Origin: a virus
Taxonomy: Duplodnaviria; Caudoviricetes
IMG/VR virus record: IMGVR_UViG_3300031774_000010
Span: 1 to 60,111 of that record
Direction: 5' to 3' (one strand)
Length of the DNA: 60,111 bases
Below, one piece after another: positions 2,337 to 49,614 of this stretch; position 1 is the stretch's first letter, and every line of letters starts with the position of its first letter. Below the pieces are notes generated by a model that had not been told where the DNA came from, searched no databases, and saw nothing but the letters and a program-made list of their open reading frames with translations. A program made the position numbers and the translations under genes.

Positions 2337-3140
2337 ATGGTCGCTCAAGCAGCAATACCTATGGCAGGTAAGTTATTACCTTTTTTAACAAAAATAGCTA
2401 CAAACCCAGTAGCAAGTTCAGCCGTTACAGGCGCTTTTATGGGTGGTGTACCTTCCTTACTGCAAGGTAATCTATTAAATGCATTAGGAGGTGGCATTGC
2501 AGGTGGAGCAGGAGGAGCAACTTTCGGTGGTATAGGAGGCAAATTAGTACCAGGAGCTACTGGACTTGCTGGTAGATTTATGGGTCCATCTACAACTGCG
2601 GCAGCGGCTGTAATACCAAGTTTAGCTGGGGCTGCGGCACCTGTTACTGCTGGTTTATTAGGAAATGCACTACTTGGCGGAGGCATTGGTAATTTAGGTA
2701 GACAAACAGCAGGAGCCGTAGGTGGAGCAGGTCAAAATACCGTCGGACTTCTTGGATATCATGCTGTAACTGGTGAGCCTTTATATGGAACAGCTGTACC
2801 TCCAGGGATGGGTCAGTATGGTGGAGTTCCTCCTGTTGGTGGTTCTGCTATGGATGTTCTTCAACCAGGTGGTCCTGCAGGTGCTCAAAGACTTACAACA
2901 CTTAAGAATGCAGAGACGATGGCTGATGCATTAAATGCTTACTTACCTACAGTTCGTAAGTTTAGTGAGCAAGCTAAGAAAGATGACTTTGAAAGAAATA
3001 TGGCTGCTGCAGGTATTAGACAAAATATTGCAACAAATGCTGCAATGTTACAAGCTTCGCAGCAAGCTGGTTTAGGAATGGGTCTTACAGGGGCTCAACA
3101 AGCTGGGCAAGCTTTAGTTAACCAGTATTCTTATAGCTGA
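2337..3140 (+). CDS. Gly/Ala-rich putative DNA ejection / internal virion protein
   Basis: Glycine-zipper-like hydrophobic N-half, Ala/Gln helical C-half. Confidence 0.5.
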   Translation: MVAQAAIPMAGKLLPFLTKIATNPVASSAVTGAFMGGVPSLLQGNLLNALGGGIAGGAGGATFGGIGGKLVPGATGLAGRFMGPSTTAAAAVIPSLAGAAAPVTAGLLGNALLGGGIGNLGRQTAGAVGGAGQNTVGLLGYHAVTGEPLYGTAVPPGMGQYGGVPPVGGSAMDVLQPGGPAGAQRLTTLKNAETMADALNAYLPTVRKFSEQAKKDDFERNMAAAGIRQNIATNAAMLQASQQAGLGMGLTGAQQAGQALVNQYSYS

Positions 3141-3142
3141 CT

Positions 3143-3871
3143 ATGACCACCCTAAATGAGTTTAAACAGTTAGTTGATGCCTATCGGTTAGGTGATTTAA
3201 AAGGACTTGACACTGCCTATAATCCGAATCCTACTGCAAATGGAAGAAACACAGATCTTAAAGATCCTTTGGTATATACGGATACTGAGTTAGAAGAGGA
3301 ACCTCTTCCAGACGATTTAGTATATGTAACTCGTGGTAAAGGACTTGATAAGAAAATATATGTAGGTAATAAAGATAGGGAAATGAATTTTCTTAAAAGA
3401 GCGACATTAGGATTATTAGATGCATTTGTAGATAATACAAAAGTAGGGGATAAAGTATTTAGGGTTGATAACGATAGGCAAAATTTAATACCAAAAGATG
3501 AATATAACGCGAAAAGGTTAGCAGAACGCCGTCGTAAAGCAGATATAAGTGGAGATGCAGTCGCAAGTCCTGAGCAAACTCGTAAACATATTGAAAGTCA
3601 AAGGGTACGAGATGCTTATCTTTTTGAACAATTAAATAAATTAAATGACTATGAATTAGAACGTTGGAAGAATGCTTATCCTCAGTATGCAAAAATGATA
3701 AATGATGAAATATTTAAGAGAAGAATGCAAATTGAATATAATAGTCCTAGTGAACTACAAAATAGACTAACCGCAGGTTTTGATACTCGTAATGCTGCTA
3801 AAGTTGCTGATGCTGAAGCATATCTAAAAATAGCGCAAGGTATGAAAACTGGTCTTGAGCGTTTTGTATAG
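3143..3871 (+). CDS. hypothetical protein
   Basis: 242-aa ORF in tight operon spacing. Confidence 0.7.
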   Translation: MTTLNEFKQLVDAYRLGDLKGLDTAYNPNPTANGRNTDLKDPLVYTDTELEEEPLPDDLVYVTRGKGLDKKIYVGNKDREMNFLKRATLGLLDAFVDNTKVGDKVFRVDNDRQNLIPKDEYNAKRLAERRRKADISGDAVASPEQTRKHIESQRVRDAYLFEQLNKLNDYELERWKNAYPQYAKMINDEIFKRRMQIEYNSPSELQNRLTAGFDTRNAAKVADAEAYLKIAQGMKTGLERFV

Positions 3872-6576: not shown

Positions 6577-8100
6577 ATGGCAGGAACAAGTATTTATAGT
6601 GTTTATCGACGAACTGCGAGAGCAGCCGCTAAACAACAAGTTGTCAAAAAAACTTCTAATATTGATGTAGAGCGAGCACGAGAAGATTTTGCATACTTTT
6701 GTGATGTTGTAGGAGATAAACCACCAGCCACTCACCATAAAGAATGGCATAAATATTTGTGTACTGGAAAGGATAGTGAATGTTTAGTAGGTATTGGTGG
6801 ACCCAATATTGATATCTTGGCACCTAGAGGAAGTGCTAAATCCACAATCCTTGGTTTATATACAGCTTGGACTGTTGGTATACATGCTCTTAATAAGCAA
6901 CCATTAAAGGTTTTATATATTTCTTACACTGTTGATGTAGCAAGACCTAAAAGTGCAGCCATAAAAAGAATTATTGAAGAAAGTAAAACATATCGTGAAA
7001 TTTTTCCCAGAGTGAAAATTGCTAAAGGTATTAATTCTAATGAGTATTGGAGTATTGATTGGAAGTTTGCTGGAATTAAATCTACTGGAGAAGAAGAGTT
7101 TACTGTTTGTTGTGCAGGCTTAAAAGGTGCTGTGACATCTAAACGTTCTCATCTTTGTATTATTGATGACGCTATCAAAAGTGCTGATGATATTAAAAAC
7201 AGAGATATTCGCCAAGCTATGCAGGATAACTGGAACTCAGTCATAGTTCCTACTATGTTTGAAGGAGGTAGAGCTATTTGTTTAGGAACTCGTTTCCGTC
7301 ATGATGATATTCATAACAGTACTTTTACTCCAGCAAATGATTGGGTTCAGATAGTCCAGTCTGCAATCACTGTTGATAAGGATGGTGAAGAAATTTCGTA
7401 TTGGCCAGATATGTGGTCTTTAGATTATTTACGAGATAGACGACGCCAAGCTCCAGTTGCTTTTAGTTTTCAGTATCAAAATCAAATAATACAGACAAGT
7501 GAGTTATCCCTTTCTCCAGACTTGGTTGTTAAAGGAGCTATAGCAACTCAGTTTGATGCTATGGGTATTGGAGTTGATCTATCAGCTGGTATAAGAGAGC
7601 AGAATGATTTTACTGCTTTTGTAATGGGTGGAAGGATAGGAAATAAGATTCATGTGATTGATTGTAAAAGATTGAGAATAATGGGGAATTTAGAAAAGTT
7701 AGAAGCATTAATGGAAATGTTAGATGAGTGGGGAGTTATTCATAAAGATGGAGATAATTACTTTCCTACAGGTAGTTCTATTCATGTTTGGTCTGAAGCT
7801 GTTGCATATCAGGCATCTTTAGAAGCTGACTTCAAACGTATCTGCTTAGGTGATCAAGGACTGTATAACGTTCTTTGGCATCCTGTTAAAGGATTTCGAG
7901 GAGACAAAGTTGCACGCTTTAGGGGCATTATGGGTTTATTTGAGCAAAGAAAGATTACTTTTAATAAGTATCGAAAGTTCACTGCATTAACAGATGAGAT
8001 TGTCAATTTCGGTGTTAGCTCCCATGATGATTGTGTTGATGCTTTAGTTTGGCTTTGTAATGGATTAATGACCAGAGGAAAACTAGAGTTAGAGTATTGA
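6577..8100 (+). CDS. terL: terminase large subunit
   Basis: Walker A APRGSAKS, Walker B CIIDD, GTR coupling motif, RNase H-like GVDLS and C-terminal HDDCVDA. Confidence 0.95.
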   Translation: MAGTSIYSVYRRTARAAAKQQVVKKTSNIDVERAREDFAYFCDVVGDKPPATHHKEWHKYLCTGKDSECLVGIGGPNIDILAPRGSAKSTILGLYTAWTVGIHALNKQPLKVLYISYTVDVARPKSAAIKRIIEESKTYREIFPRVKIAKGINSNEYWSIDWKFAGIKSTGEEEFTVCCAGLKGAVTSKRSHLCIIDDAIKSADDIKNRDIRQAMQDNWNSVIVPTMFEGGRAICLGTRFRHDDIHNSTFTPANDWVQIVQSAITVDKDGEEISYWPDMWSLDYLRDRRRQAPVAFSFQYQNQIIQTSELSLSPDLVVKGAIATQFDAMGIGVDLSAGIREQNDFTAFVMGGRIGNKIHVIDCKRLRIMGNLEKLEALMEMLDEWGVIHKDGDNYFPTGSSIHVWSEAVAYQASLEADFKRICLGDQGLYNVLWHPVKGFRGDKVARFRGIMGLFEQRKITFNKYRKFTALTDEIVNFGVSSHDDCVDALVWLCNGLMTRGKLELEY

Positions 8101-32591: not shown

Positions 32592-33002
32592 GTGTATCAT
32601 TGTGAGCAAGATCTTCTAGCTAATTTAGTTGTTTTATCGTCAAAAAATGCTCGAAAAGAATTTAGAAATCATATTTTTGCAGCTTGGGAATGGAAATGTG
32701 CTTACTGTGATAATAAATTAGATGATTTAAGTGCAACGATTGATCACATAGTTCCTAAATTTAAAGGGGGACATAACGTTAAATCCAATATGTGCTGTTG
32801 TTGTTCTTCTTGTAATAGACAAAAAGGTTCTACTTTTTTAGAAGAATGGTATACACCTAGTTTTGCTTTTTATTGCAAAAAAAGATTTGTTAAAATAAAG
32901 AATTGGATGGAGCAAGAACCAAGCTCTATTAAACTATTATTAGCAGATAAGGCACACCCTTACATAGCAAATGACTTCTACATCGGATGGGTACCAAGTT
33001 GA
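32592..33002 (+). CDS. HNH endonuclease
   Basis: CAYC...TIDHIVPKFKGG...N...C..CN..KG. Confidence 0.9.
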   Translation: MYHCEQDLLANLVVLSSKNARKEFRNHIFAAWEWKCAYCDNKLDDLSATIDHIVPKFKGGHNVKSNMCCCCSSCNRQKGSTFLEEWYTPSFAFYCKKRFVKIKNWMEQEPSSIKLLLADKAHPYIANDFYIGWVPS

Positions 33003-39041: not shown

Positions 39042-39360
39042 ACTCCTTTGCTAAGCCAGTGAAGAGACTATTAGTTCTTCCTGATTTATTATATAATTCT
39101 TCCATTATTCTACTCCGTTCAGGATATACACCTTCTTCTTCTTTTGTAGCATAATTGTGATAATCAAGAGCAATTTCTAAGTGATTTAATCTAGCTGCAG
39201 CTTCTTCCTTTGTATCACACCATGCTCCGATTGTGGTATTCCCATCAAGTACTATCATTGGTGCATAATTTTTTTCTTTTAAATGATAATTACTCTGAAC
39301 TACTTGACTCTTTTTCAGAGTTATTTTTTCTCTCTTTGTAGTGTTTGAAGATGTTGTCAT
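39013..39360 (-). CDS. hypothetical protein
   Basis: 115-aa ORF. Confidence 0.6.
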   Translation of the reverse strand: MTTSSNTTKREKITLKKSQVVQSNYHLKEKNYAPMIVLDGNTTIGAWCDTKEEAAARLNHLEIALDYHNYATKEEEGVYPERSRIMEELYNKSGRTNSLFTGLAKEYVTVSNNNS

Positions 39361-40426
39361 GAGTAAGTTTAACGCACTGTAGTTTTGTAGGGGATGACTC
39401 GTTTTCGAGTTCTTTGATTGTAAGGTGCAAAGGGTTACAACAAAAAGGTTTACAAGATTTTTTTGTAAAGATCCTGTATTTACCTGTATAACCGCGACTC
39501 AACCAAAAAGCAACTCGCGATGCTGATTGAGTTTTACCACTATGGAATGGAGAAGGAAAATATGCAACTGACTCACTTCCATTTTTCTTTGTTGAACCAT
39601 TCCAAGCCCAACATTCATTATCTTCACCAATATCAACTTGGTCCCAAAAACGTTTAATTTGCCAATGCCAACGAAAATCAAAATTACGCACATCAATAGT
39701 GCATCGATCATTTTTTATTTCTTTCATACAATCTAAGCACTCTCCCATAAGGCCAAAATTACCTTTATGTGTTGTAGATCCTTTCGCATGCCAAGGACAT
39801 TCATAATTATTTTTCATGTGATAATTCAAATTAAATTCATCCGCTTCTGTAGAATACTCTGTAGTCAACTTTTTATATAAAGCTGCAATATTCTTCCAAA
39901 GAAGTTGTTTATCAGGATTTTCATTGACGTCTTCAGGAATATAAGTCTCATAATTACAAATTCTTCTGACAGTTTGATAAGGAAGTCTGTAAGTCTTTGA
40001 TAATTTTAAACTACTTATGCCTGACTCACTTTCCTGTCGCAGTTTACTTATTAAAGTGTTATTAATGCCTGTTTTATTTCTTTCATTGTTTTCTTTTGCT
40101 ACATCTGCCCTTGTTCCCCAGTAATAATGAGATGGATTTAGACAATATTGAGACTCACAAATAGACCGACGAACAATAATTGGTTTTAAAGGATCAGGAT
40201 CTTGCCCAGCCATAGCTAAAAGCAAAGGACGTGCATCTCGACCCCTGTAAGAGAGTCGAACCTTTTTACTAGTGGTAAAACCTTGAAATATTGTGTGATT
40301 ACATTGATCACGCCGCTTCAAACACCAGCATTTGTCTTTTCCACGTAGCTGTAAAGCTATTTGAAAGGCTTTTACAAAGGTAATTTTGTCATTTGGTGTA
40401 AGAGAGGTAGCTAAAAAAGCATCCAT
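39290..40426 (-). CDS. tandem HNH/His-Cys (zinc-binding loop) domain protein with central HTH, probably nuclease-dead
   Basis: Two CW...C.NP.H units (YCLNPSHYYWGT, CCNPLHL); SSLKLSKTYRLPYQTVRRI HTH; ATG at 40426 preferred. Confidence 0.7.
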   Translation of the reverse strand: MDAFLATSLTPNDKITFVKAFQIALQLRGKDKCWCLKRRDQCNHTIFQGFTTSKKVRLSYRGRDARPLLLAMAGQDPDPLKPIIVRRSICESQYCLNPSHYYWGTRADVAKENNERNKTGINNTLISKLRQESESGISSLKLSKTYRLPYQTVRRICNYETYIPEDVNENPDKQLLWKNIAALYKKLTTEYSTEADEFNLNYHMKNNYECPWHAKGSTTHKGNFGLMGECLDCMKEIKNDRCTIDVRNFDFRWHWQIKRFWDQVDIGEDNECWAWNGSTKKNGSESVAYFPSPFHSGKTQSASRVAFWLSRGYTGKYRIFTKKSCKPFCCNPLHLTIKELENESSPTKLQCVKLTHDNIFKHYKERKNNSEKESSSSE

Positions 40427-40480
40427 TTTAGGAAAAACAGTTAGGGTGCAAGGTGTTCTACACATTAAACCTCTTCTGGC

Positions 40481-40671
40481 GCAATGGCAATCATTGAACA
40501 CCCAAAATCTAATTTTTTTTCCCTTATTTATTTACTTCTAAGGAGGAGAGGGTTAGGTACGTGACTGTAAGTTATCTTATCTTCACTCATGTACCTATCC
40601 CTAACGCTTACGTACTTAAGATAAAAGCCTATATTTTTTAAGTTTTTGGGTGTTTATACCAAAACCATTGC
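40481..40671. repeat. long interrupted dyad, candidate origin or protein-binding array
   Basis: Three inverted-repeat blocks sharing one symmetry centre near 40576. Confidence 0.75.
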
Positions 40672-40778
40672 AATGAAAGCTATTAAGAGAAAATCGCATA
40701 AAAAAAGTAGCTTCTCCCTACCGTTTTTAAGGGTATTTTTTTGTTTTTAATGTTTATTGAGATTTTCGAAGGTTGAGG

Positions 40779-40949
40779 TTAGGTGCGTGACTGTTCAAAT
40801 AATTCTGCGTATGTTTGAGCTTCGTCAAAGGAGTGGGTATAACGACACATGGCGTCATTAAGGCAACAGACACGATGCATTTGGTGTCCATTTCTGGTTA
40901 AAGTTTTAATAGTTGTCCCATTAGGAAAGTTAATCAAAATAATAGGCAA
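40779..40949 (-). CDS. small hypothetical protein (56 aa)
   Basis: Manually read TTG-start ORF ...FPNGTTIKTL...MCRYTHSFDEAQ. Confidence 0.5.
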   Translation of the reverse strand: MPIILINFPNGTTIKTLTRNGHQMHRVCCLNDAMCRYTHSFDEAQTYAELFEQSRT

Positions 40950-41032
40950 TTATCCAGTGTTATTATTATAAAAACTCTGATAAAAATAAAGGTAGTTATA
41001 GCTTTATAATTAATAAAACTAGGTAAAGATTA

Positions 41033-41263
41033 ATGTACGGCGCAGGATTCGACCCAGCAGGCTTAGATATGGCGGATTTGGGTGATCCTCGTCGTCAAGA
41101 AGGTTTACCAGGTGGTTATTCAAATCAAGGTCAAGCAGTTAGTGCTCCTTATGCAGAAGCAAATATGCGAGCTGCTGAAAAGACTAATCCTATGAATGCC
41201 ATTTCACAAGAACCTGGTATTACTGATCAGGTTGATGACTTTTTATCCCGTATTGGAGCTTAA
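41033..41263 (+). CDS. hypothetical protein
   Basis: 76-aa ORF after TATAAT box. Confidence 0.65.
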   Translation: MYGAGFDPAGLDMADLGDPRRQEGLPGGYSNQGQAVSAPYAEANMRAAEKTNPMNAISQEPGITDQVDDFLSRIGA

Positions 41264-41265
41264 TC

Positions 41266-41793
41266 ATGAGATTTGCATTTGGTGATTCTGGCAGTTTTTT
41301 AGATGCTGTAAAGGATGGTTTACTTGGAGCTGCGTTTAATAATGATTTTGGTGGAGGAGTTGTAGGAAGAACTGGAGCTTGGGACCCAACGAAAGGAGTT
41401 GTTGGTACTGCGTTTAATAATGATTTTGGTGGAGGAGTTGTAGGAAGAACTGGAGCTTGGGACCCAACGAAAGGAGTTGTTGGTACTGCGTTTAATAATG
41501 ATTTTGGTGGAGGAGTTGTAGGAAGAATTGGAGCTTGGGACCCAAGGAAAGGAGTTGTTGGTACTGATTCAGCAGCAACAAACTTTATTAAAGAAGGAGG
41601 TGTTGCAGGGTTAACTACTGGTCATAATCCGCTGACAGGAATTGTTGGAGATAGAAATCCTTTTGGTGATTTCGGAGGAGGATTAGGAGGTGTCGTCGGC
41701 GGTTTAGTTGGTAAAGGAGGCGAGTCAAAAGGTGTAAGTGGATTAGGTGGTTTTAGACCAGCTGGATTTATTGGGAGTTTGTTTGGAGCTTAA
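41266..41793 (+). CDS. Gly-rich protein with three 26-aa repeats
   Basis: AFNNDFGGGVVGRTGAWDPTKGVVGT x3. Confidence 0.65.
   Translation: MRFAFGDSGSFLDAVKDGLLGAAFNNDFGGGVVGRTGAWDPTKGVVGTAFNNDFGGGVVGRTGAWDPTKGVVGTAFNNDFGGGVVGRIGAWDPRKGVVGTDSAATNFIKEGGVAGLTTGHNPLTGIVGDRNPFGDFGGGLGGVVGGLVGKGGESKGVSGLGGFRPAGFIGSLFGA
41330..41566 (+). repeat. 78-bp tandem repeat, three copies
   Basis: Units start at 41330, 41408 and 41486; the third has two substitutions. Confidence 0.95.
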
Positions 41794-41795
41794 TT

Positions 41796-42629
41796 ATGAC
41801 TTGGGCTCATAAAGTAAATTATTCATCACAAGAGGCTTTAGATGCTGCTAGGGCAGCAACGCAGAATAAATATAAAAGAATGTTTAGTAAGCAAATTGAA
41901 GAAGCTGCGAGGCGGGGTGAAACAGCTTTAGATGCTATGGATTTTTCTCTTTGGCATTCACGGGTTGCAACTCCTGATGATAATGCAGAATATCGATGGG
42001 CTTTTGAACCTTTAGGAACAAACATAGCACCTTGGAGAAAGTGGGGAGGTGGGAATAAAAAATCGTCAGGAACAAATGCTACAAGAATGGCTTCAATAGG
42101 TAAGATAAAAGCAGCACTTGGTGATACGAGTCCAACTGTAAATAGATCTTTTGCACCAGACGCGAATGTTAATAACTATGTAAATAGAAATTTCGCTGAC
42201 ATGCTTGGTTTAACACCAGTTACTAATTCTCTCAGCTCACGATTGAATGCTACGCAAGGCAAACTTATGCCTTCCAATCCAAGTTATAGAGGTGTAGGTG
42301 CTAATCCTAGTTATGGTGTTCCTTCACTAGGTAGTTTTGATAATGTTTCATCTTTTAGTAATTTCACAGGTGGTTTACCTTCATTTGATCAAAGCTCTAT
42401 AGAACATTCTTCTTTATCCGATCCTTCTAGTGTTTCTTCGTCTTTCAGAGCAGCGGGTGACGCTTTTGGTAAGTCTGGAGGTGGTTCAGGTGTACCTTTT
42501 GCCGATGAAATACCGATACCTTTAGCTTTATCTGTAGATAATTCTTCTCCTTCTTCTTCTTCTTCTTTTAGTCCTCATAATTATCTTGTAATAGGAAGAA
42601 GTCCTTATTCTCGTAGTACTTATTATTAA
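41796..42629 (+). CDS. Ser-rich hypothetical protein
   Basis: 277-aa ORF in operon. Confidence 0.6.
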   Translation: MTWAHKVNYSSQEALDAARAATQNKYKRMFSKQIEEAARRGETALDAMDFSLWHSRVATPDDNAEYRWAFEPLGTNIAPWRKWGGGNKKSSGTNATRMASIGKIKAALGDTSPTVNRSFAPDANVNNYVNRNFADMLGLTPVTNSLSSRLNATQGKLMPSNPSYRGVGANPSYGVPSLGSFDNVSSFSNFTGGLPSFDQSSIEHSSLSDPSSVSSSFRAAGDAFGKSGGGSGVPFADEIPIPLALSVDNSSPSSSSSFSPHNYLVIGRSPYSRSTYY

Positions 42630-42631
42630 TT

Positions 42632-42838
42632 ATGGGTGACACAGATTTTCCAGCAGTAATGGCAAATTGGGGGAATGCTAGGGATTTAGCATCTCAATGG
42701 CAAGGTCGTTCTAAAGGAAGCTCTTCATACGTCGAGAGTGGAACAGGCATACCTACTAGTGGTGAACATATTGAGTATGAATCAGGTGAAGGTTCTATAG
42801 AAGATCCTTGGTATACAGAAAGGAGAGAGTTCTTTTAG
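42632..42838 (+). CDS. hypothetical protein
   Basis: 68-aa ORF in operon. Confidence 0.55.
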   Translation: MGDTDFPAVMANWGNARDLASQWQGRSKGSSSYVESGTGIPTSGEHIEYESGEGSIEDPWYTERREFF

Positions 42839-42894
42839 GTAGTAGATTTTTAGAGCGTAAAATTATATATAAAGCGCTAAGTTTAATAAAGTAG

Positions 42895-43968
42895 ATGACA
42901 CAGACTAAAGCTGAATTATTACAAACCAAAAATCAAGGAGATATACGTCTTGGAGATGCTGATTCTTCACATTATGTAGGTTTTAAAGCGCCAACAACTG
43001 TAAGTGCTAATAAGGTATGGACTCTTCCTGCAGCTGACGGAAGTGCTAATCAAGTATTAACAACTAATGGTTCAGGAGTTTTAACTTGGGCTGCTGGTGG
43101 TGGTCTTTCTTCAGATGCACAGTTTAACACTGTTGGCGGTACAAACGCAGGAGATAGTTTTACTGGAACAGATGCAAATTATAATACGTTGATCGGTTAT
43201 GACGCTGGAACAGCAATAACATCTGGTGATAATAATACTGTCTTTGGTTATAAAGCAGGGGAAGCTATAACAACTGTTAGTCGGAACAGCTTTTTTGGAT
43301 ATCAAGCAGGTAGATATACCACTGGTTATAATAACACTTTCATAGGTGAGAATTGTGGTCAAGGATCGTCTGGATCTACTACTTCTTATAATGGTACTGG
43401 TCTAGGTAAAGGTGCATTATATAGTTCAACTACTGGTGGTGGTAATACATCAATAGGCATGAACTCAGGATACGCAGTTACTACTGGTTATGACAATACG
43501 TTGATTGGTTATCAAGCTGGTAATACGCTTACAACAGGTAGAAATAACATTTGTATTGGTTATGAATCTGCACCGTCAAGCAATACAGTTGATCATGAAA
43601 TAACGTTTGGAAATTCATCTATATCAACTTTACGTTGTCAAGTAACAAGCATTAGTGCCTTATCTGATAGGCGTGATAAGACAGATATTAATACTTTAGA
43701 TTTAGGATTAAACTTTATAAATGCTCTTAATCCAGTAAAATTCAAATGGAATTCAAGAGAAGGAATATTAAAAGATGGTAGTTATGAAGCAGGTTTTATA
43801 GCTCAGGACTTTCAGGAATCACAAAAAGACTTTAATGCTGAATACCTTAATTTGGTATTAGATACAAATCCAGAAAAACTAGAAGCTGCTCCAGGTAAAT
43901 TAATTCCAATAATGGTCCAAGCCATTAAAGAACTATCCGCAGAAGTCCAAGCATTAAAGAACTCATAG
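42895..43968 (+). CDS. fibre protein with S74 chaperone
   Basis: WTLPAADG, NTxxGxxAG repeats, SDRRDK, GFIAQD. Confidence 0.9.
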   Translation: MTQTKAELLQTKNQGDIRLGDADSSHYVGFKAPTTVSANKVWTLPAADGSANQVLTTNGSGVLTWAAGGGLSSDAQFNTVGGTNAGDSFTGTDANYNTLIGYDAGTAITSGDNNTVFGYKAGEAITTVSRNSFFGYQAGRYTTGYNNTFIGENCGQGSSGSTTSYNGTGLGKGALYSSTTGGGNTSIGMNSGYAVTTGYDNTLIGYQAGNTLTTGRNNICIGYESAPSSNTVDHEITFGNSSISTLRCQVTSISALSDRRDKTDINTLDLGLNFINALNPVKFKWNSREGILKDGSYEAGFIAQDFQESQKDFNAEYLNLVLDTNPEKLEAAPGKLIPIMVQAIKELSAEVQALKNS

Positions 43969-44015
43969 ATTAGCCACTTTAGAATAGAACAAATTATTAG
44001 TAGTTGTATAACTAA

Positions 44016-45500
44016 ATGGCTTACATTGGAAGACAGTTGGCACGAGGAGAAAATAGACTCTTCGATGATATCTCTAGTAGTTTTAATGGAAGTACCACAA
44101 CTTTCAATTTAACTGTTGCATCGGTTGCTACCTCTACTGCAACTCCATACCAACTCTTTGTGAGTCTTGGCGGGGTGATGCAGAAACCTGGTACAGACTT
44201 TACGACAGCTGGTAATCAAATAACCTTTACGACTGCTCCAGCAGCTGGAATTTCCTGTTGGATTATGATGCAGGGAGATTCAATTGATCAAGCTGCTATT
44301 CCTGACGGTGTAGTAACTGCAAGCAAAATAGCGAATAGTGGTGACTTTGCATTTCCTGCTGACATCCGTTTAAAAGATGGTGATGGCTCACATTATGTAG
44401 GTTTTGAAGCGCCAACAACTGTAAGTGCTAATAAGGTATGGACTCTTCCTGCAGCTGACGGAAGTGCTAATCAACTATTAACAACTAATGGCTCAGGAGT
44501 TTTAACTTGGAGTACTGTTGCTGCTGGTGGTACTACGGTTACTAATGCTTATTCCTTAGTAAGTAGTAATGCTGGAAGTGGTGGTTCTTATGTCGTTTCG
44601 CTCGGAGAAGAGGCAGGAGAGAATCTTAACACTTTAAATAATTATTATAACATCAGCATAGGGAATCAGGCTGGTTATACAGCTAACGTCAATTGGGGAC
44701 ATATATACATAGGTAAGCAAGCTGGTAAGTTTCTTACAGGTGGTAACATTTGTATTGGATACGAAAGTGGAGTAGGAGTTTCTGGATCTAGTACTGCAAG
44801 TTCCGTAACTGCTATTGGTAAATTTGCACTTAAAGCTATAACAACAGGTGGTCCTTGTGTAGCTTTGGGTAGTTATGCTGGATGGAAATTAACCTCAGGT
44901 ATTAATAACGTAATAATTGGAGATCAGTCTGGGTACAACGTTACTACTGGTGCTAGTAATACATTTTTAGGAGAAGCAGCTGGACATTCTACAACAACTG
45001 GAACTGATAATATATGTATAGGAAAGTATGCATATGGACCTACAACAGGAGCAAATAATATTCTTATCGGTACTGGTTCTACTTTATCAGCCCAAACAGT
45101 TTCTAATCAAATAACGCTTGGAAATTCATCTATATCAACTTTACGTTGTCAAGTAACAAGCATTAGTGCCTTATCTGATAGGCGTGATAAGACAGATATT
45201 AATACTTTAGATTTAGGATTAAACTTTATAAATGCTCTTAATCCAGTAAAATTCAAATGGAATTCAAGAGAAGGAATATTAAAAGATGGTAGTTATGAAG
45301 CAGGTTTTATAGCTCAGGACTTTCAGGAATCACAAAAAGACTTTAATGCTGAATACCTTAATTTGGTATTAGATACAAATCCAGAAAAACTAGAGGCAGC
45401 ACCTGGAAAATTAATGCCAATAGTGGTCCAAGCCATTAAAGAATTACTAGAAGAAGTGACTACATTGAAAACTAAGGTTGCTTTATTAGAATCTGCATAA
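44016..45500 (+). CDS. fibre protein with S74 chaperone
   Basis: MAYIG...DDISSSFNGS N-terminus like the long fibre; same repeats and S74 domain. Confidence 0.9.
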   Translation: MAYIGRQLARGENRLFDDISSSFNGSTTTFNLTVASVATSTATPYQLFVSLGGVMQKPGTDFTTAGNQITFTTAPAAGISCWIMMQGDSIDQAAIPDGVVTASKIANSGDFAFPADIRLKDGDGSHYVGFEAPTTVSANKVWTLPAADGSANQLLTTNGSGVLTWSTVAAGGTTVTNAYSLVSSNAGSGGSYVVSLGEEAGENLNTLNNYYNISIGNQAGYTANVNWGHIYIGKQAGKFLTGGNICIGYESGVGVSGSSTASSVTAIGKFALKAITTGGPCVALGSYAGWKLTSGINNVIIGDQSGYNVTTGASNTFLGEAAGHSTTTGTDNICIGKYAYGPTTGANNILIGTGSTLSAQTVSNQITLGNSSISTLRCQVTSISALSDRRDKTDINTLDLGLNFINALNPVKFKWNSREGILKDGSYEAGFIAQDFQESQKDFNAEYLNLVLDTNPEKLEAAPGKLMPIVVQAIKELLEEVTTLKTKVALLESA

Positions 45501-45501
45501 A

Positions 45502-45774
45502 ATGATTTATTGTTTTCTTTCTAACCCACCTTTATATTTTCATCCTGCTACATGGGGGAAACCTTTAATATCTCATGGTACTTATGAAGGACTCCCACCT
45601 CAAGGACAATTAATAGCTATCATATTAGGCTTATTATTGTTCTTAGTAGGTTATGGACTCTATTTAACATTCGGTGCTGGTAAGGAAGATTTAAAAGATG
45701 CTATTGATGAACATGCGAAAATGCATGAATTAGGGATTGCACATGGGCATAATGGAAGAAAGCTTAAATCGTAA
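45502..45774 (+). CDS. psbN: PsbN-like protein
   Basis: TM helix followed by GYGLYLTFGAGKEDLKDAIDEH, matching PsbN G..(I/L)Y..FG....L.DP.E.H. Confidence 0.7.
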   Translation: MIYCFLSNPPLYFHPATWGKPLISHGTYEGLPPQGQLIAIILGLLLFLVGYGLYLTFGAGKEDLKDAIDEHAKMHELGIAHGHNGRKLKS

Positions 45775-45993
45775 ATGGTTAACCTCAGAGATAAAATTAT
45801 TAAATCTCTCCTAGCCCATGCCAATGGAGAGATTCAAATCCATCTTGCAAATGTTGAAATTTATTTAAACAATCCCGCAGGTATTGGGGAGCACTCTGAT
45901 ATTACGGGAGCTATACAGGAAGAATTAGATAAGATTGCAAAATGGGAAGATCAGATTTCTGTAATTCAAAAATATCTTACTAGTGCTCGCTAA
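45775..45993 (+). CDS. hypothetical protein
   Basis: 72-aa helical ORF (NP.GIGEHSDI). Confidence 0.7.
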   Translation: MVNLRDKIIKSLLAHANGEIQIHLANVEIYLNNPAGIGEHSDITGAIQEELDKIAKWEDQISVIQKYLTSAR

Positions 45994-47037: not shown

Positions 47038-49614
47038 CTATGCCAATTTATTTTCTGGCAGTATAGTAGGGGATTTTGTATGCTTTTGATCAGAACTTCT
47101 TACTACTAACCCCTTTATAAAAGGTCTTCCTTTCTTTGTAAAATGATAAATGTTCTTAAGTGCTAACTGATTTTTACAACAGTCAAGAAGTAAAGATATA
47201 AATCTTTTTTGTCCTACAGGTTTTGATCCAGTGTCTTCACAATAGGAACAATAACTTGCATAAAGATGAAAACTACTATTGCAATATCTTTCTTTTGCAT
47301 CCTTTGCTGCAGGAATTTTCTTACCTACGGATGCAACAGCGTCAGGTTCATGTACAACTTCTGACTGTAACCATTCAATAAGATTATTACTATTTAATAA
47401 AATCTCATTTCTAACCTTCTTCAATGAAGGAACTTTTTCATATGTATCTAGAAGATATTCTCTCATTTCTTGAGTAGTCATTTGTAAAACCCAGTTGACT
47501 AAGCCAGGTAAATAATTCTTCCATAAGCCCTTTACGACTCCGTTCTCCATTTTTATCATCTCTTTCGCCTCAGAATTTTTATCCCATAATGAGCGATTAA
47601 ACTCCACGGTCAAACGCCGTCTAGTTAAGCCAGATGTGTTATCTGTTGTCTGGATTGGCTCATTGGCGCAAACCATGACCATACCGATGTAAACAAATGG
47701 TTCCCCTACGTTTTTATTTTTCTCTTCAAAGCGTAAATTATCTCCTCCAGTAAGAGCTTTAAAGATCTGTGCAGAGCCTCCGTACCGCTCTGAGTCGTTA
47801 ATTAGAGTGAGTCGCTTACCTTTTATTGATGCTATCTCGAAACGGCTCTGTTCGAGCTGATTAAGGGTAGTACTTGCATAGTTTCCATTGCCAACTAGAG
47901 CACAACAAAGATTTGCAAAAGTTGATTTACCACGTCCTCCTGGTCCAATGATTTCAAGGAATCTCTGTAGTTCATGACCTTGACCGACTAAGCAAGCTTT
48001 TAGCCATGCTCTTAAAACTTGAACTCTATCTTCATCTCCATATTGAGTCTTTCTAAGCCATTGGATAATAGGTCCTGGATCTGCGTTAGGGTTATAGTCA
48101 AAGTCAAGCCCCCAAGTTAAATAATGTTCAGGATCATGATCTAGAAATTCACCTGTATTCATTTCAAGTACACCGTTGTTAAAAGCTAGACGATCAGGGT
48201 CATCATCCCAGTAGGTGTGGGTAATATAAGCCTGAGTTAGGTTTACTACGTCGGAGATCAAATGAGATGTAAAGCCACCTGGGGTAGGAATATTTTCCCT
48301 TAAAAAGAGGTCTTGTACGAAGTGTTTATATTCATGTCTATATTCTTCTCTTCTCCAAGTACCTTTACTACTTTGATAAAACATAAAGGTATCAAATTTT
48401 GGATCATATCTCCAACCACATTCAACGACCATCTGAGTAACAAATTCAGCTAATTCTGAAGCTGGTGGAGTCTTTGGTCTGCTTCTGCCTTTTACCTTTT
48501 CTTTTATTTCTTCTTGTTCTTTTTCAGTAGGTGCTCCCATGATTGCTTTAAGAGCGTTATTTATAGTGCTTTCATTAATTTCTGTTTTATCATTTTTAAA
48601 TAGTTTTTTAGCTTTTTCTGCGAGTGCTTCAGCTGATTCAACGACAAAGCCTCCAAGTTCTAGATAACCATCTTCTTTTGCTTTAGCCCTGAGAGTATGT
48701 ATACCTGCACCATTTTCAGGAGCTGGTCCTCCTTCTTGACGTTCAAAAGTATCCCATTTCTGTTCACAAACCCCATCTTGAAAGTTAGAAGCTTGCTCTG
48801 ACCAGTCAATCCATTCTTTTAATAAAGAATCGTCTATTTGATGTAAGGCTGCACCTACTGTGATCCACTCTTCATAGTCAATAGCTCTATCTTGACTAAG
48901 ATGATCTAGATAAATTTTTGCTTCAGATAACAATTCTTCCTGTTGAAACTCTGATCCTTCCTCGTAATTGATGTTTATCTGTTGAGTAACTATTCCTTGT
49001 CTGGGTGTTTTTCTGTATTTAGTTGTTGGATGAGCTTTTGTAATTGCGTCATATAACCATTCTGGAAGTTCTGGAGGATTTTTTGCATACTCAAAACCAC
49101 CATGTGAAGTCGTAAAATATCCCTCAGTTTCTGGATGGCTTCCCATGATTGCACCTTGTCTTGATCTAAAAAGAATTTCAAAAGAAGGTATGCCTATTTT
49201 TATTGTCGCTTTATCTGGTAATAAAGATATTTTTTTAGTTGGAACGCTGTAAAGCATCCTCTGTCTGCCTTCTTTACCAGATGAAATCGTTAAAGTAGGA
49301 GGAAAAATAGCGGAAAGAGGAGCACCAGCTAATTCTTCGAGTTCTGGTATAGCTTCTGGACCATCAATATCTACCCATAAAAGTCCACCTTCATTTGACC
49401 ACTGACCTGTAATTAAGCCTATGCCAGTTGCTTGTCCATCTTGCAGCTCCGCTTTTATCTGGTCAATGGTATAAGGTTGAGAAGTCCAGCCAGCAAGATA
49501 TGCCCTTTTATCCCGTAATGGTGTGAGAGCCCAATCTTGAGGAATTAAATCAAGATTGATTTCTCCAGCTTTAATTTGATAGTTAGGTTGTTGTTCTGGT
49601 GATGCAGTAGGCAC
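47038..49614 (-). CDS. bifunctional primase-polymerase / PriCT / D5-like SF3 helicase
   Basis: WVDIDG, GSHPETEGY, YEEWITVGAALH...W..WS, Walker A GPGGRGKST, FKALTGGD. Confidence 0.92.
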   Translation of the reverse strand: MPTASPEQQPNYQIKAGEINLDLIPQDWALTPLRDKRAYLAGWTSQPYTIDQIKAELQDGQATGIGLITGQWSNEGGLLWVDIDGPEAIPELEELAGAPLSAIFPPTLTISSGKEGRQRMLYSVPTKKISLLPDKATIKIGIPSFEILFRSRQGAIMGSHPETEGYFTTSHGGFEYAKNPPELPEWLYDAITKAHPTTKYRKTPRQGIVTQQININYEEGSEFQQEELLSEAKIYLDHLSQDRAIDYEEWITVGAALHQIDDSLLKEWIDWSEQASNFQDGVCEQKWDTFERQEGGPAPENGAGIHTLRAKAKEDGYLELGGFVVESAEALAEKAKKLFKNDKTEINESTINNALKAIMGAPTEKEQEEIKEKVKGRSRPKTPPASELAEFVTQMVVECGWRYDPKFDTFMFYQSSKGTWRREEYRHEYKHFVQDLFLRENIPTPGGFTSHLISDVVNLTQAYITHTYWDDDPDRLAFNNGVLEMNTGEFLDHDPEHYLTWGLDFDYNPNADPGPIIQWLRKTQYGDEDRVQVLRAWLKACLVGQGHELQRFLEIIGPGGRGKSTFANLCCALVGNGNYASTTLNQLEQSRFEIASIKGKRLTLINDSERYGGSAQIFKALTGGDNLRFEEKNKNVGEPFVYIGMVMVCANEPIQTTDNTSGLTRRRLTVEFNRSLWDKNSEAKEMIKMENGVVKGLWKNYLPGLVNWVLQMTTQEMREYLLDTYEKVPSLKKVRNEILLNSNNLIEWLQSEVVHEPDAVASVGKKIPAAKDAKERYCNSSFHLYASYCSYCEDTGSKPVGQKRFISLLLDCCKNQLALKNIYHFTKKGRPFIKGLVVRSSDQKHTKSPTILPENKLA

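Follow-up and report, generated by a model that had tools for sequence, protein, structure and literature searches.

What is a long, nested inverted repeat doing beside the start codon of an HNH-like gene in a tailed cyanophage, and is it maintained as DNA or as RNA? The window that we analyzed is the complete IMG/VR record IMGVR_UViG_3300031774_000010 (Duplodnaviria; Caudoviricetes), a linear sequence of 60,111 b that is ~70% complete by CheckV. The element in question occupies about 40441-40722, between a small leftward open reading frame (ORF; 40949-40779) and the leftward gene of a 378-aa HNH-like protein (40426-39290); the rightward genes start at 41033, and the small ORF thus separates the element from them, so that its placement near a strand switch in a preliminary description of the locus does not hold. 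Comparison of the element with its counterparts in related viruses leads us to conclude that it is a feature of DNA rather than RNA, and it is most likely a cis-acting DNA assembly site. Its function we name tentatively; the best reading is a possible replication origin or helicase–primase loading site, of the stem-loop type, in the lineage of Synechococcus phage S-EIV1.

The element is a ~290-bp non-coding quasi-palindrome composed of four nested inverted-repeat tiers, named P0 to P3 from the outside inward (table 1). The preliminary description reported P1, P2, and P3 as a 190-bp interrupted dyad, and the letters and coordinates that it gave for these three inverted repeats are all correct: the tiers share one center at 40575.5-40576. 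The extent was understated, since the fourth tier, P0, carries the symmetry out to ~290 bp; the two P0 arms pair weakly in the window and over 7-18 nt, in other letters, in relatives. P1 is the weakest tier among relatives (96 of 161 cells are Watson–Crick), whereas the letters of the P2 left arm are conserved within the marine clade and are replaced in deeper clades by different arms of 16-25 nt in the same place. The mismatches between the P3 arms are themselves conserved, with C-C found in 17 of 24 relatives and T-T in 13 of 24. Exact concentric runs in the window sum to 25 nt (7 + 11 + 7), a value reached by 2 of 200 dinucleotide shuffles of a 630-nt region (mean 14.2, sd 4.1); the concentric symmetry of the window by itself is suggestive, and it becomes decisive only when combined with the relatives.

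A profile of 24 relatives matches the window on the forward strand with an E-value of 1.5e-77 and on the reverse strand with an E-value of 2.3e-14 over profile positions 37-299, and it has no second match in the window. Because the profile matches both strands, the ~290-bp stretch as a whole is a quasi-palindrome in which the spacers have diverged through insertions and deletions. The earlier statement that the AT-rich spacers do not pair is correct for ungapped pairing in the window; it is contradicted by the reverse-strand match, by three relatives (L064, L124, and L126) with ungapped arms of 69-79 nt that are 68-73% complementary, and by the local pairing seen with RNAfold and with DNA folding. 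The preliminary description also drew attention to an 18-mer at 40551 and 40777 that is identical at 17 of 18 positions, and this observation stands: the 18-mer is found twice in the 60,111 b, both times on the plus strand, against a chance expectation of 0.03, and 0 of 100 shuffles gave two copies. In the complete relative G006 the copies are alike at 18 of 18 positions, and the direct copies are closer to each other than are the two arms of the dyad.

The element is conserved well beyond the window. A degenerate DNA pattern made from the spacer and the inner arm, in which the gene was not used, matches 30 places in viral contigs, of which we judged 24 to be true elements and 6 to be chance. 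An ORF starts 60-100 nt to the left in 24 of the 24 true elements, and the ten of these ORFs that were aligned are 54-66% identical to the window protein. Approached from the protein, an alignment of the HNH-like sequence found 128 relatives, from which 80 loci were kept; the element lies upstream of the gene in 71 of the 80, in the same orientation (nhmmer E<=1e-3). Three of the nine misses lack upstream DNA, and the other six are the most divergent, higher-GC relatives, in which nested dyads identified de novo occupy the same distance from the start codon in different letters. Of 68 distinct relatives, 47 have their best concentric center 135-175 nt upstream of the start codon, and an outer arm or site lies 5-25 nt from this codon in all clades and in S-EIV1. 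These positions are held although the flanking protein is only 48-66% identical among the relatives that share the fixed element position and its conserved asymmetric blocks. The symmetry is present in relatives, and it is kept even where the arm letters differ between clades and in S-EIV1.

The element is also a single locus. All matches to the arm patterns fall within one ~250-bp stretch in each of three genomes, G001 (100% complete), G006 (100%), and G007 (96%). In 35 of 52 relatives a second copy of the 18-mer (at most 4 of 18 mismatches) is found 214-229 bp away from the first, and in a covariance model it forms a complete second hairpin in many of them. In 61 of 68 relatives the repeats are flanked, on one side or both, by a tract of at least six A/T residues, which may be on either strand. 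Among 48 relatives the inner dyad measures 42 bp (2 relatives), 46 (2), 48 (17), 49 (11), 50 (10), or 51 (6), with the insertions and deletions located apically.

The comparison across clades is what separates conservation of pairing from conservation of letters. When 52 distinct sequences are aligned with a covariance model, pairing extends to 80.0% of cells, compared with 71.1 +/- 0.6 in shuffled alignments, and both sides have changed at 26 of 33 pairs, compared with 16.2 +/- 1.7; none of 500 shuffles reached either value. Complementarity is thus kept while the letters turn over. The register of the three helices is specific, in that slid partners pair at 30-41% in the 24-sequence alignment. 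Among the 397 non-Watson–Crick cells of the cross-clade alignment, 58 are G-T, 87 A-C, and 252 other, and a second, de novo count (n=491) gives 71, 99, and 321; chance predicts one sixth for each of the G-T and A-C classes, and wobble pairs are not enriched among the mismatches on either strand. The homopolymer tracts on either side of the inner region consist of T in some clades and of A in others. The lack of G-U enrichment and the change of strand of the A/T tracts place the constraint on DNA, in agreement with the preliminary description, which had treated the element as a symmetric DNA site acting in cis.

These same data bear on the alternative of a structured RNA on the minus strand, a leader or intercistronic element between the small ORF and the HNH-like gene, whose basal helix would block the start region and govern translation or processing. 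The predicted RNA folds are far more stable than those of shuffled sequences (-62.1 kcal/mol, z -5.7, for the plus strand; -58.5 kcal/mol, z -4.7, for the minus strand), the outermost arm adjoins the start codon, complementarity is kept across clades, and in 41 of 68 relatives it is the minus strand that gives the more stable fold. The strand preference is inconsistent, however, given that the plus strand folds better in the remaining 27, and as DNA the two strands are equally stable (-36.3 and -36.8 kcal/mol, z -3.7 and -3.5). Wobble pairs would be expected of an RNA helix, and U-tracts would not be expected to turn into A-tracts in other clades. RNAalifold finds almost nothing in 24 sequences (-0.94 kcal/mol), and close relatives show no covariation (score 0.109 vs 0.103 shuffled, with 109 of 500 shuffles as high). 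Rfam returns no match at gathering score for the whole window or for 40300-41100, and its five matches at E 1.9-8.3 score far below gathering. We consider an RNA element improbable. Contigs from RNA runs (two oligo-dT and one presumed RNA) contain parts of the neighboring genes at a depth of 2-6 and leave the element uncovered, a coverage that permits no inference on transcription.

If the element acts as DNA, its arms could be half-sites for a protein or stems of an extruded structure. The preliminary description took the preserved spacing to indicate symmetric protein-binding sites, an argument that is weaker than stated: the dyad span varies over 42-51 bp and both arms of two tiers change together, so that a hairpin or cruciform fits at least as well. 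From the aligned sequences, a hairpin or cruciform, or correction of one arm by the other, would fit the variable span and the joint change of the tiers better than rigid half-sites for a dimer. The closely similar direct copies, the conserved differences between the arms, and the arm at the start codon speak for sequence-specific reading as well, and for a link with expression of the neighboring gene; constraints on structure and on sequence reading may act together. Arm-to-arm conversion could also keep a palindrome that has no function, or the element could be the relic of a mobile palindromic insertion. Templated repair from one arm to the other would make the two change in concert and leave no wobble bias, as is seen, but conversion does not account for the fixed position, the distance from the start codon, and the asymmetric blocks that persist beside a much less conserved protein, and a single copy in a fixed place is unlike the behavior of miniature inverted-repeat transposable elements (MITE-type elements). 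We regard either version as extremely improbable.

The case for a replication origin derives from the single-copy status of the element, its A/T tracts, its conserved synteny with the replication gene, and a published stem-loop system. The window encodes an 858-aa protein in which an AEP Prim-Pol domain is followed by a helical domain and an SF3 helicase; its gene is co-oriented with the element and lies ~6.3 kb upstream in terms of transcription. In 11 of 11 metagenomic records (the window and ten others) and in S-EIV1, the PrimPol-SF3 gene is followed downstream by the element in the same orientation, at a distance of 1.7-9.7 kb. Each of the three near-complete genomes has one locus, A/T-rich tracts stand beside the repeats in most relatives, and what is kept among relatives is the integrity of the stems and not their sequence, as in a stem-loop origin, in an alignment fitted to that model. 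We suggest that either strand would fold into a long imperfect hairpin of four nested stems, with a further site at the second 18-mer copy (40777-40794), and that the PrimPol-SF3 helicase would assemble there by analogy with pRN1 and the BPP-1-type stem-loops. The adjacent HNH_3-like/helix–turn–helix protein would be the sequence-specific factor that marks the site, and the A/T tracts may aid melting or bending.

The closest analog is the plasmid pRN1, for which Berkner et al. (2014; PMC4234260) describe a 100-nt stem-loop whose integrity is needed for replication and which is proposed as the origin; they also describe similar stem-loops beside the similarly built replication genes of the BIP-1/BPP-1 phages. 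The replication proteins of pRN1 and BIP-1 are likewise fusions of an AEP primase-polymerase and an SF3 helicase, and the order of Prim-Pol, PriCT_2, and D5_N/SF3 in the window protein is that described for BIP-1 in the same source (PMC4234260). As in pRN1 and BPP-1, the site is a single long imperfect DNA stem-loop in place of a classic iteron array, with structure kept over sequence. Unlike the pRN1 stem-loop, the element is about three times as long (~290 bp vs 100 nt), has four separated tiers, is accompanied by an extra direct copy ~220 bp away, and always adjoins an HNH_3-like/helix–turn–helix gene that is missing from the pRN1 system; and it lies 1.7-9.7 kb from the replication gene, whereas the stem-loops of pRN1 and BIP-1 lie directly 3' of theirs.

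More distant comparisons are also informative. The core origins of SV40 and papillomaviruses have dyad sites flanked by A/T-rich tracts, on which SF3 helicases assemble head to head; they span 60-100 bp, with short pentamer or palindrome sites that are read by the helicase itself or by a dimeric partner. The element shares the dyad-symmetric sites and the A/T-rich flanks, and we found no sequence or domain relation to the SV40/papillomavirus origin-binding domains. The ori/crr of phage P4 and the IncQ (RSF1010) oriV with its inverted ssiA/ssiB sites have repeated sites in both orientations and a second cis site at a distance, as summarized in PMC4234260. The element likewise has sites in both orientations and a second cis site at a distance. 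In such systems the inverted hairpin sites let a plasmid- or phage-specific primase prime both strands. The P4 primase is of the Toprim type and works with 8-mer iterons, and the RSF1010 hairpins of ~40 nt stand beside 20-bp iterons; no such iteron array is present at the element. We consider the element best filed with the palindromic and stem-loop cis sites of phage and plasmid replicons.

The protein encoded beside the element contains two HNH_3-like modules and a central helix–turn–helix and is a candidate binder of the element. Its residues 257-337 have PHROG matches to HNH endonucleases, residues 131-160 resemble a CENP-B-type helix–turn–helix weakly and below the Pfam cutoff, and in the family alignment a second copy of the Cys/Asn-Pro/His motif is evident toward the N-terminus. 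Among named Atlas clusters, the nearest carry HNH_3 (score 0.91, which serves as a lead only). The histidine that precedes the first cysteine of the Cys/Asn-Pro/His motif would be the general base. Three of three annotated phage HNH endonucleases have this histidine, two residues before the first motif cysteine; none of five proteins linked to the element has it, and 11 of 11 family members lack it in the N-terminal module as well. From these residues we reasonably infer that the protein is a dead nuclease turned DNA binder. In an elaborated form of the origin proposal, the four-tier quasi-palindrome would extrude paired hairpins and be marked by this domesticated, catalytically dead tandem-HNH/helix–turn–helix protein, which would recruit two PrimPol-SF3 helicase rings. 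We regard this version as unlikely; if true, it would constitute a three-part origin system with no described phage counterpart, in which site and reader have co-diversified from freshwater S-EIV1 to open-ocean clades.

Several observations weigh against an origin. The PrimPol gene does not have the element immediately 3' of it: the two are ~6.3 kb apart in the window and 1.7-9.7 kb apart among relatives, and no repeat occurs in the gap of 81 nt that follows the gene. The tightest linkage of the element, in every clade, is to the start codon of the HNH-like gene at 5-25 nt, which autoregulation fits better than an origin does. For the close marine clade, conservation of sequence suffices to explain the pairing (76.6% vs 75.8% shuffled, a level that 55 of 500 shuffles reached). 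The cross-clade covariation depends on related sequences in an alignment fitted to the proposed structure, and in a partner-swap test the mean for an element's own arms is 27.7 vs 15.7 +/- 11.1 for swapped arms, with self beating every swap in only 5 of 19 cases; the test separates deep clades only. The AlphaFold2 model of the HNH-like protein is poor (pLDDT 62, pTM 0.45), Foldseek against the PDB gives no match at E<=0.001, its best rows (I-PpoI and small helix–turn–helix regulators) having E-values of at least 0.44, and that the protein binds the element we only infer. A sequence search of the PDB with this protein likewise returns nothing.

Nucleotide skew gives a further point on the same side. 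The preliminary description proposed a bidirectional origin for the primase-D5 helicase, to be checked by GC skew. The orientation-corrected cumulative GC3 skew is monotonic in two complete relatives, G001 (87,026 b) and G006 (80,952 b), with no turn and no switch of polarity at the element; a four-group skew contrast in the window shifts from -0.005 to +0.106 without a change of sign, and it is not reproduced in G001 or G006. Given that the GC3 skew is one-signed and has no turning point, it does not locate an origin and a bidirectional origin is not supported, and what is left of the proposal is an origin as a best guess from synteny and the published analog. In plus-strand letters, the GC3 skew of G001 is +0.136 for plus-strand genes and +0.227 for minus-strand genes, and that of G006 is -0.198 and -0.157. 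Such uniformity suggests a mode of replication or repair that treats one strand alike genome-wide; a unidirectional or rolling mode would leave no skew landmark.

The close linkage to the HNH-like gene is what an operator or promoter region would explain. In this alternative the HNH_3-like/helix–turn–helix protein would bind repeated sites (one beside the start codon of its gene, the dyad ~150 bp upstream of that, and another copy ~220 bp beyond), loop the DNA, and control its own leftward operon and perhaps the divergent genes. The arrangement resembles that of autoregulated looping operators of phages and plasmids, in that sites adjoin the beginning of a gene whose product probably binds DNA and copies stand 150-220 bp apart. 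A site or outer arm near the start codon is found in all clades, S-EIV1 has a 24-nt direct repeat directly after it, gene and element are never found apart, and a protein without the expected HNH_3 histidine in either module that has a helix–turn–helix could bind DNA. The direct 18-mer copies are more alike than the dyad arms, as sites read by sequence would be, and the arm mismatches are conserved. A promoter-like sequence can also be read directly on the minus strand at 40490-40462, with a -35-like hexamer (5/6), a 17-nt spacer, and a -10 of the TAnnnT type; it is below the threshold of the promoter scan. However, four tiers over ~290 bp, with outer arms of 16-25 nt in some clades, far exceed the needs of an operator, and the symmetry of the element is much more extensive than that of known looping operators. 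A half-site spacing that varies over 42-51 bp is awkward for a dimer on duplex DNA, the joint change of letters in two tiers across clades would require several specificities to co-evolve, and the three near-complete genomes hold no further sites elsewhere. We consider an operator, the main rival of an origin, somewhat unlikely.

Regarding the promoter-like sequence, we note that it overlaps the P1 left arm, that it would start the mRNA of the HNH-like gene ~30 nt before the start codon, and that it is not clearly conserved across all subclades. The promoter scan itself yields one promoter-like site, inside the small ORF (minus strand, 40828-40799), a count below the shuffle expectation, and the combined scan finds no terminator-like sites. 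DnaA-box and NtcA-type host sites were seen by eye in some relatives; they are not conserved across alignment A2 and were dropped.

Nested inverted repeats around one center also resemble the target layouts of protelomerases and recombinases, and the preliminary description listed a packaging or terminus site and a resolution site among its suggestions. We therefore weighed a role as a res, telRL-like, attP, cos, or pac site, which would serve recombination, the resolution of telomeres, or packaging. The element contains the ends of two short contigs, one within each P2 arm (L003/L048, at the end of a 7,964-b contig, and L020/L113, at the start of a 10,867-b contig); these ends could be chance, an assembly break at a repeat, or real molecule ends. 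Many other contigs, and Logan contigs of a DNA run, pass straight through the element. The center at 40568-40583 is not palindromic, as a telRL-like site would require, and neither the 75 scanned ORFs of the window (~70% of the genome) include a recombinase, protelomerase, or integrase family nor does the window contain a tRNA or tRNA-like sequence; with no recombinase seen among the neighboring genes, the resolution site finds no support. A packaging site is equally at odds with a large terminase gene ~32 kb away and with G006, a record with direct terminal repeats whose ends are not at the element, which lies 5.3-5.5 kb from the record start. We judge this group of functions very improbable. 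In DNA run X1, the summed contig depth over 40312-40613 is 22-25 vs ~11 in the flanks, and unitigs break at 40480-40494; the doubled depth is consistent with several co-occurring strains that share the conserved part of the element. One X1 contig has an extra A after 40751.

The cultured phage S-EIV1 provides a counterpart with the same layout. It has a 225-aa ORF, absent from the annotation, whose product is homologous to the C-terminal half of the HNH-like protein. A 24-nt repeat adjoins the start codon of this ORF, a second copy follows 160 nt on, and an inverted 13-nt copy comes next; an outer 29-nt inverted repeat surrounds the same center, and the dyad lies 135 nt beyond the repeat at the start codon. 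The S-EIV1 element is detected neither by the marine-clade profile nor by the covariance model, the likeness being one of layout only, in unrelated letters. The 225-aa frame is at 3028-3705 of locus L044, which corresponds to about 7027-7704 of KJ410740.1 on the minus strand, where the GenBank record instead has one 441-nt gene and two tiny genes on the opposite strand; the S-EIV1 element occupies about 7705-8075 of KJ410740.

S-EIV1 is also the nearest cultured phage to the window by protein, with a primase that is 34% identical over 97% of its length. We found no DNA match to the window, near or distant, in a phage collection, and an exact 19-mer search of viral contigs gave no match. The complete records among the relatives are 81-87 kb in length. 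A preprint (bioRxiv 10.1101/325100) describes ~86-kb genomes of uncultured marine cyanophages whose closest relative is S-EIV1, and it reports this uncultured lineage as widespread in Tara Oceans samples. The window probably belongs to this lineage.

To our knowledge, nothing is known of how S-EIV1-like cyanophages start replication or time their early genes, and the literature that we consulted on S-EIV1, on cyanophage origins, inverted repeats, and primase, and on BAC21E04 contains no description of the element. What is unusual here is the combination of four nested tiers, a fixed tandem-HNH-like partner, and turnover of sequence with retention of symmetry from a freshwater isolate to ocean clades. 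The element offers a sharply defined, single-copy cis site with an obvious candidate reader adjoining it, and because S-EIV1 is cultured and has the same layout in different letters, swaps of site and protein are feasible. If the element is an origin, it would be a second, independent case for the use of long DNA stem-loops rather than iterons by PrimPol-SF3 replicons; if it is an operator only, it would still exemplify an HNH nuclease fold turned DNA-binding regulator.

Table 1. Positions of the element's components and of the genes discussed, in window coordinates.
Feature	Position	Strand	Remarks
Large terminase gene	6577-8100		~32 kb from the element
HNH-like protein gene	39290..40426	-	378 aa; two HNH_3-like modules and a central helix–turn–helix; candidate element binder
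P0 (outermost tier), left arm	40441..40447		14 nt from start codon of HNH-like gene; invariant block in alignments A1 and A2
P1, left arm	40481..40487		7 nt
P2, left arm	40497..40510		14 nt; 93% complementary to right arm
Left A/T tract	40513..40520		T8 on plus strand
AT-rich block of gene-proximal spacer	40527..40540		Strongly conserved; invariant columns in A1; invariance in A2 partly by construction, as the block served as search pattern
P3 (inner dyad), left arm	40549..40567		19 nt; contains first 18-mer copy (40551-40568)
P3, right arm	40584..40602		19 nt; 84% complementary to left arm
Right A/T tract	40634..40639		T6 on plus strand
P2, right arm	40641..40654		14 nt
P1, right arm	40665..40671		7 nt
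P0, right arm	40716..40722		Conserved block, end of A2; pairs with P0 left arm
Second direct 18-mer copy (third copy of the preliminary description)	40777..40794	+	Overlaps stop codon of small ORF
Small Cys/His-rich ORF	40779..40949	-	56 aa; TTG start as listed; stop codon inside second 18-mer copy
PrimPol-PriCT_2-D5_N-SF3 helicase replication protein gene	47038..49614	-	858 aa; Pfam PF09250, PF08707, PF08706, PF19263

The remaining gene content of the window is that of a tailed cyanophage, with a large terminase, a major head protein, and tail-fiber proteins on the plus strand, a Phage_OMP domain protein, and a leftward replication block that includes a PD-(D/E)XK exonuclease and DNA polymerase I. 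The 56-aa Cys/His-rich ORF beside the element has no family match; ORFs of a similar type were recognized in relatives by eye only, and S-EIV1 has no counterpart. A second HNH protein of the window, the 136-aa ORF at 32592-33002, has strong matches to HNH endonucleases (phrog_2214, 2.3e-23) and is unrelated to the element-linked protein. Within the 175-aa ORF at 41266-41793, which encodes a Gly-rich repeat protein with no family match, positions 41324-41566 contain three tandem copies of an 87-nt unit at 78-nt spacing that are 95-100% alike. The region between the PrimPol block and the element (41033-45993) is a rightward cassette of tail-fiber-like genes, two of them with Peptidase_S74. The first gene to the right of the element varies among relatives, as does the distance of 1.7-9.7 kb between PrimPol gene and element, as if this region were a variable insertion site.

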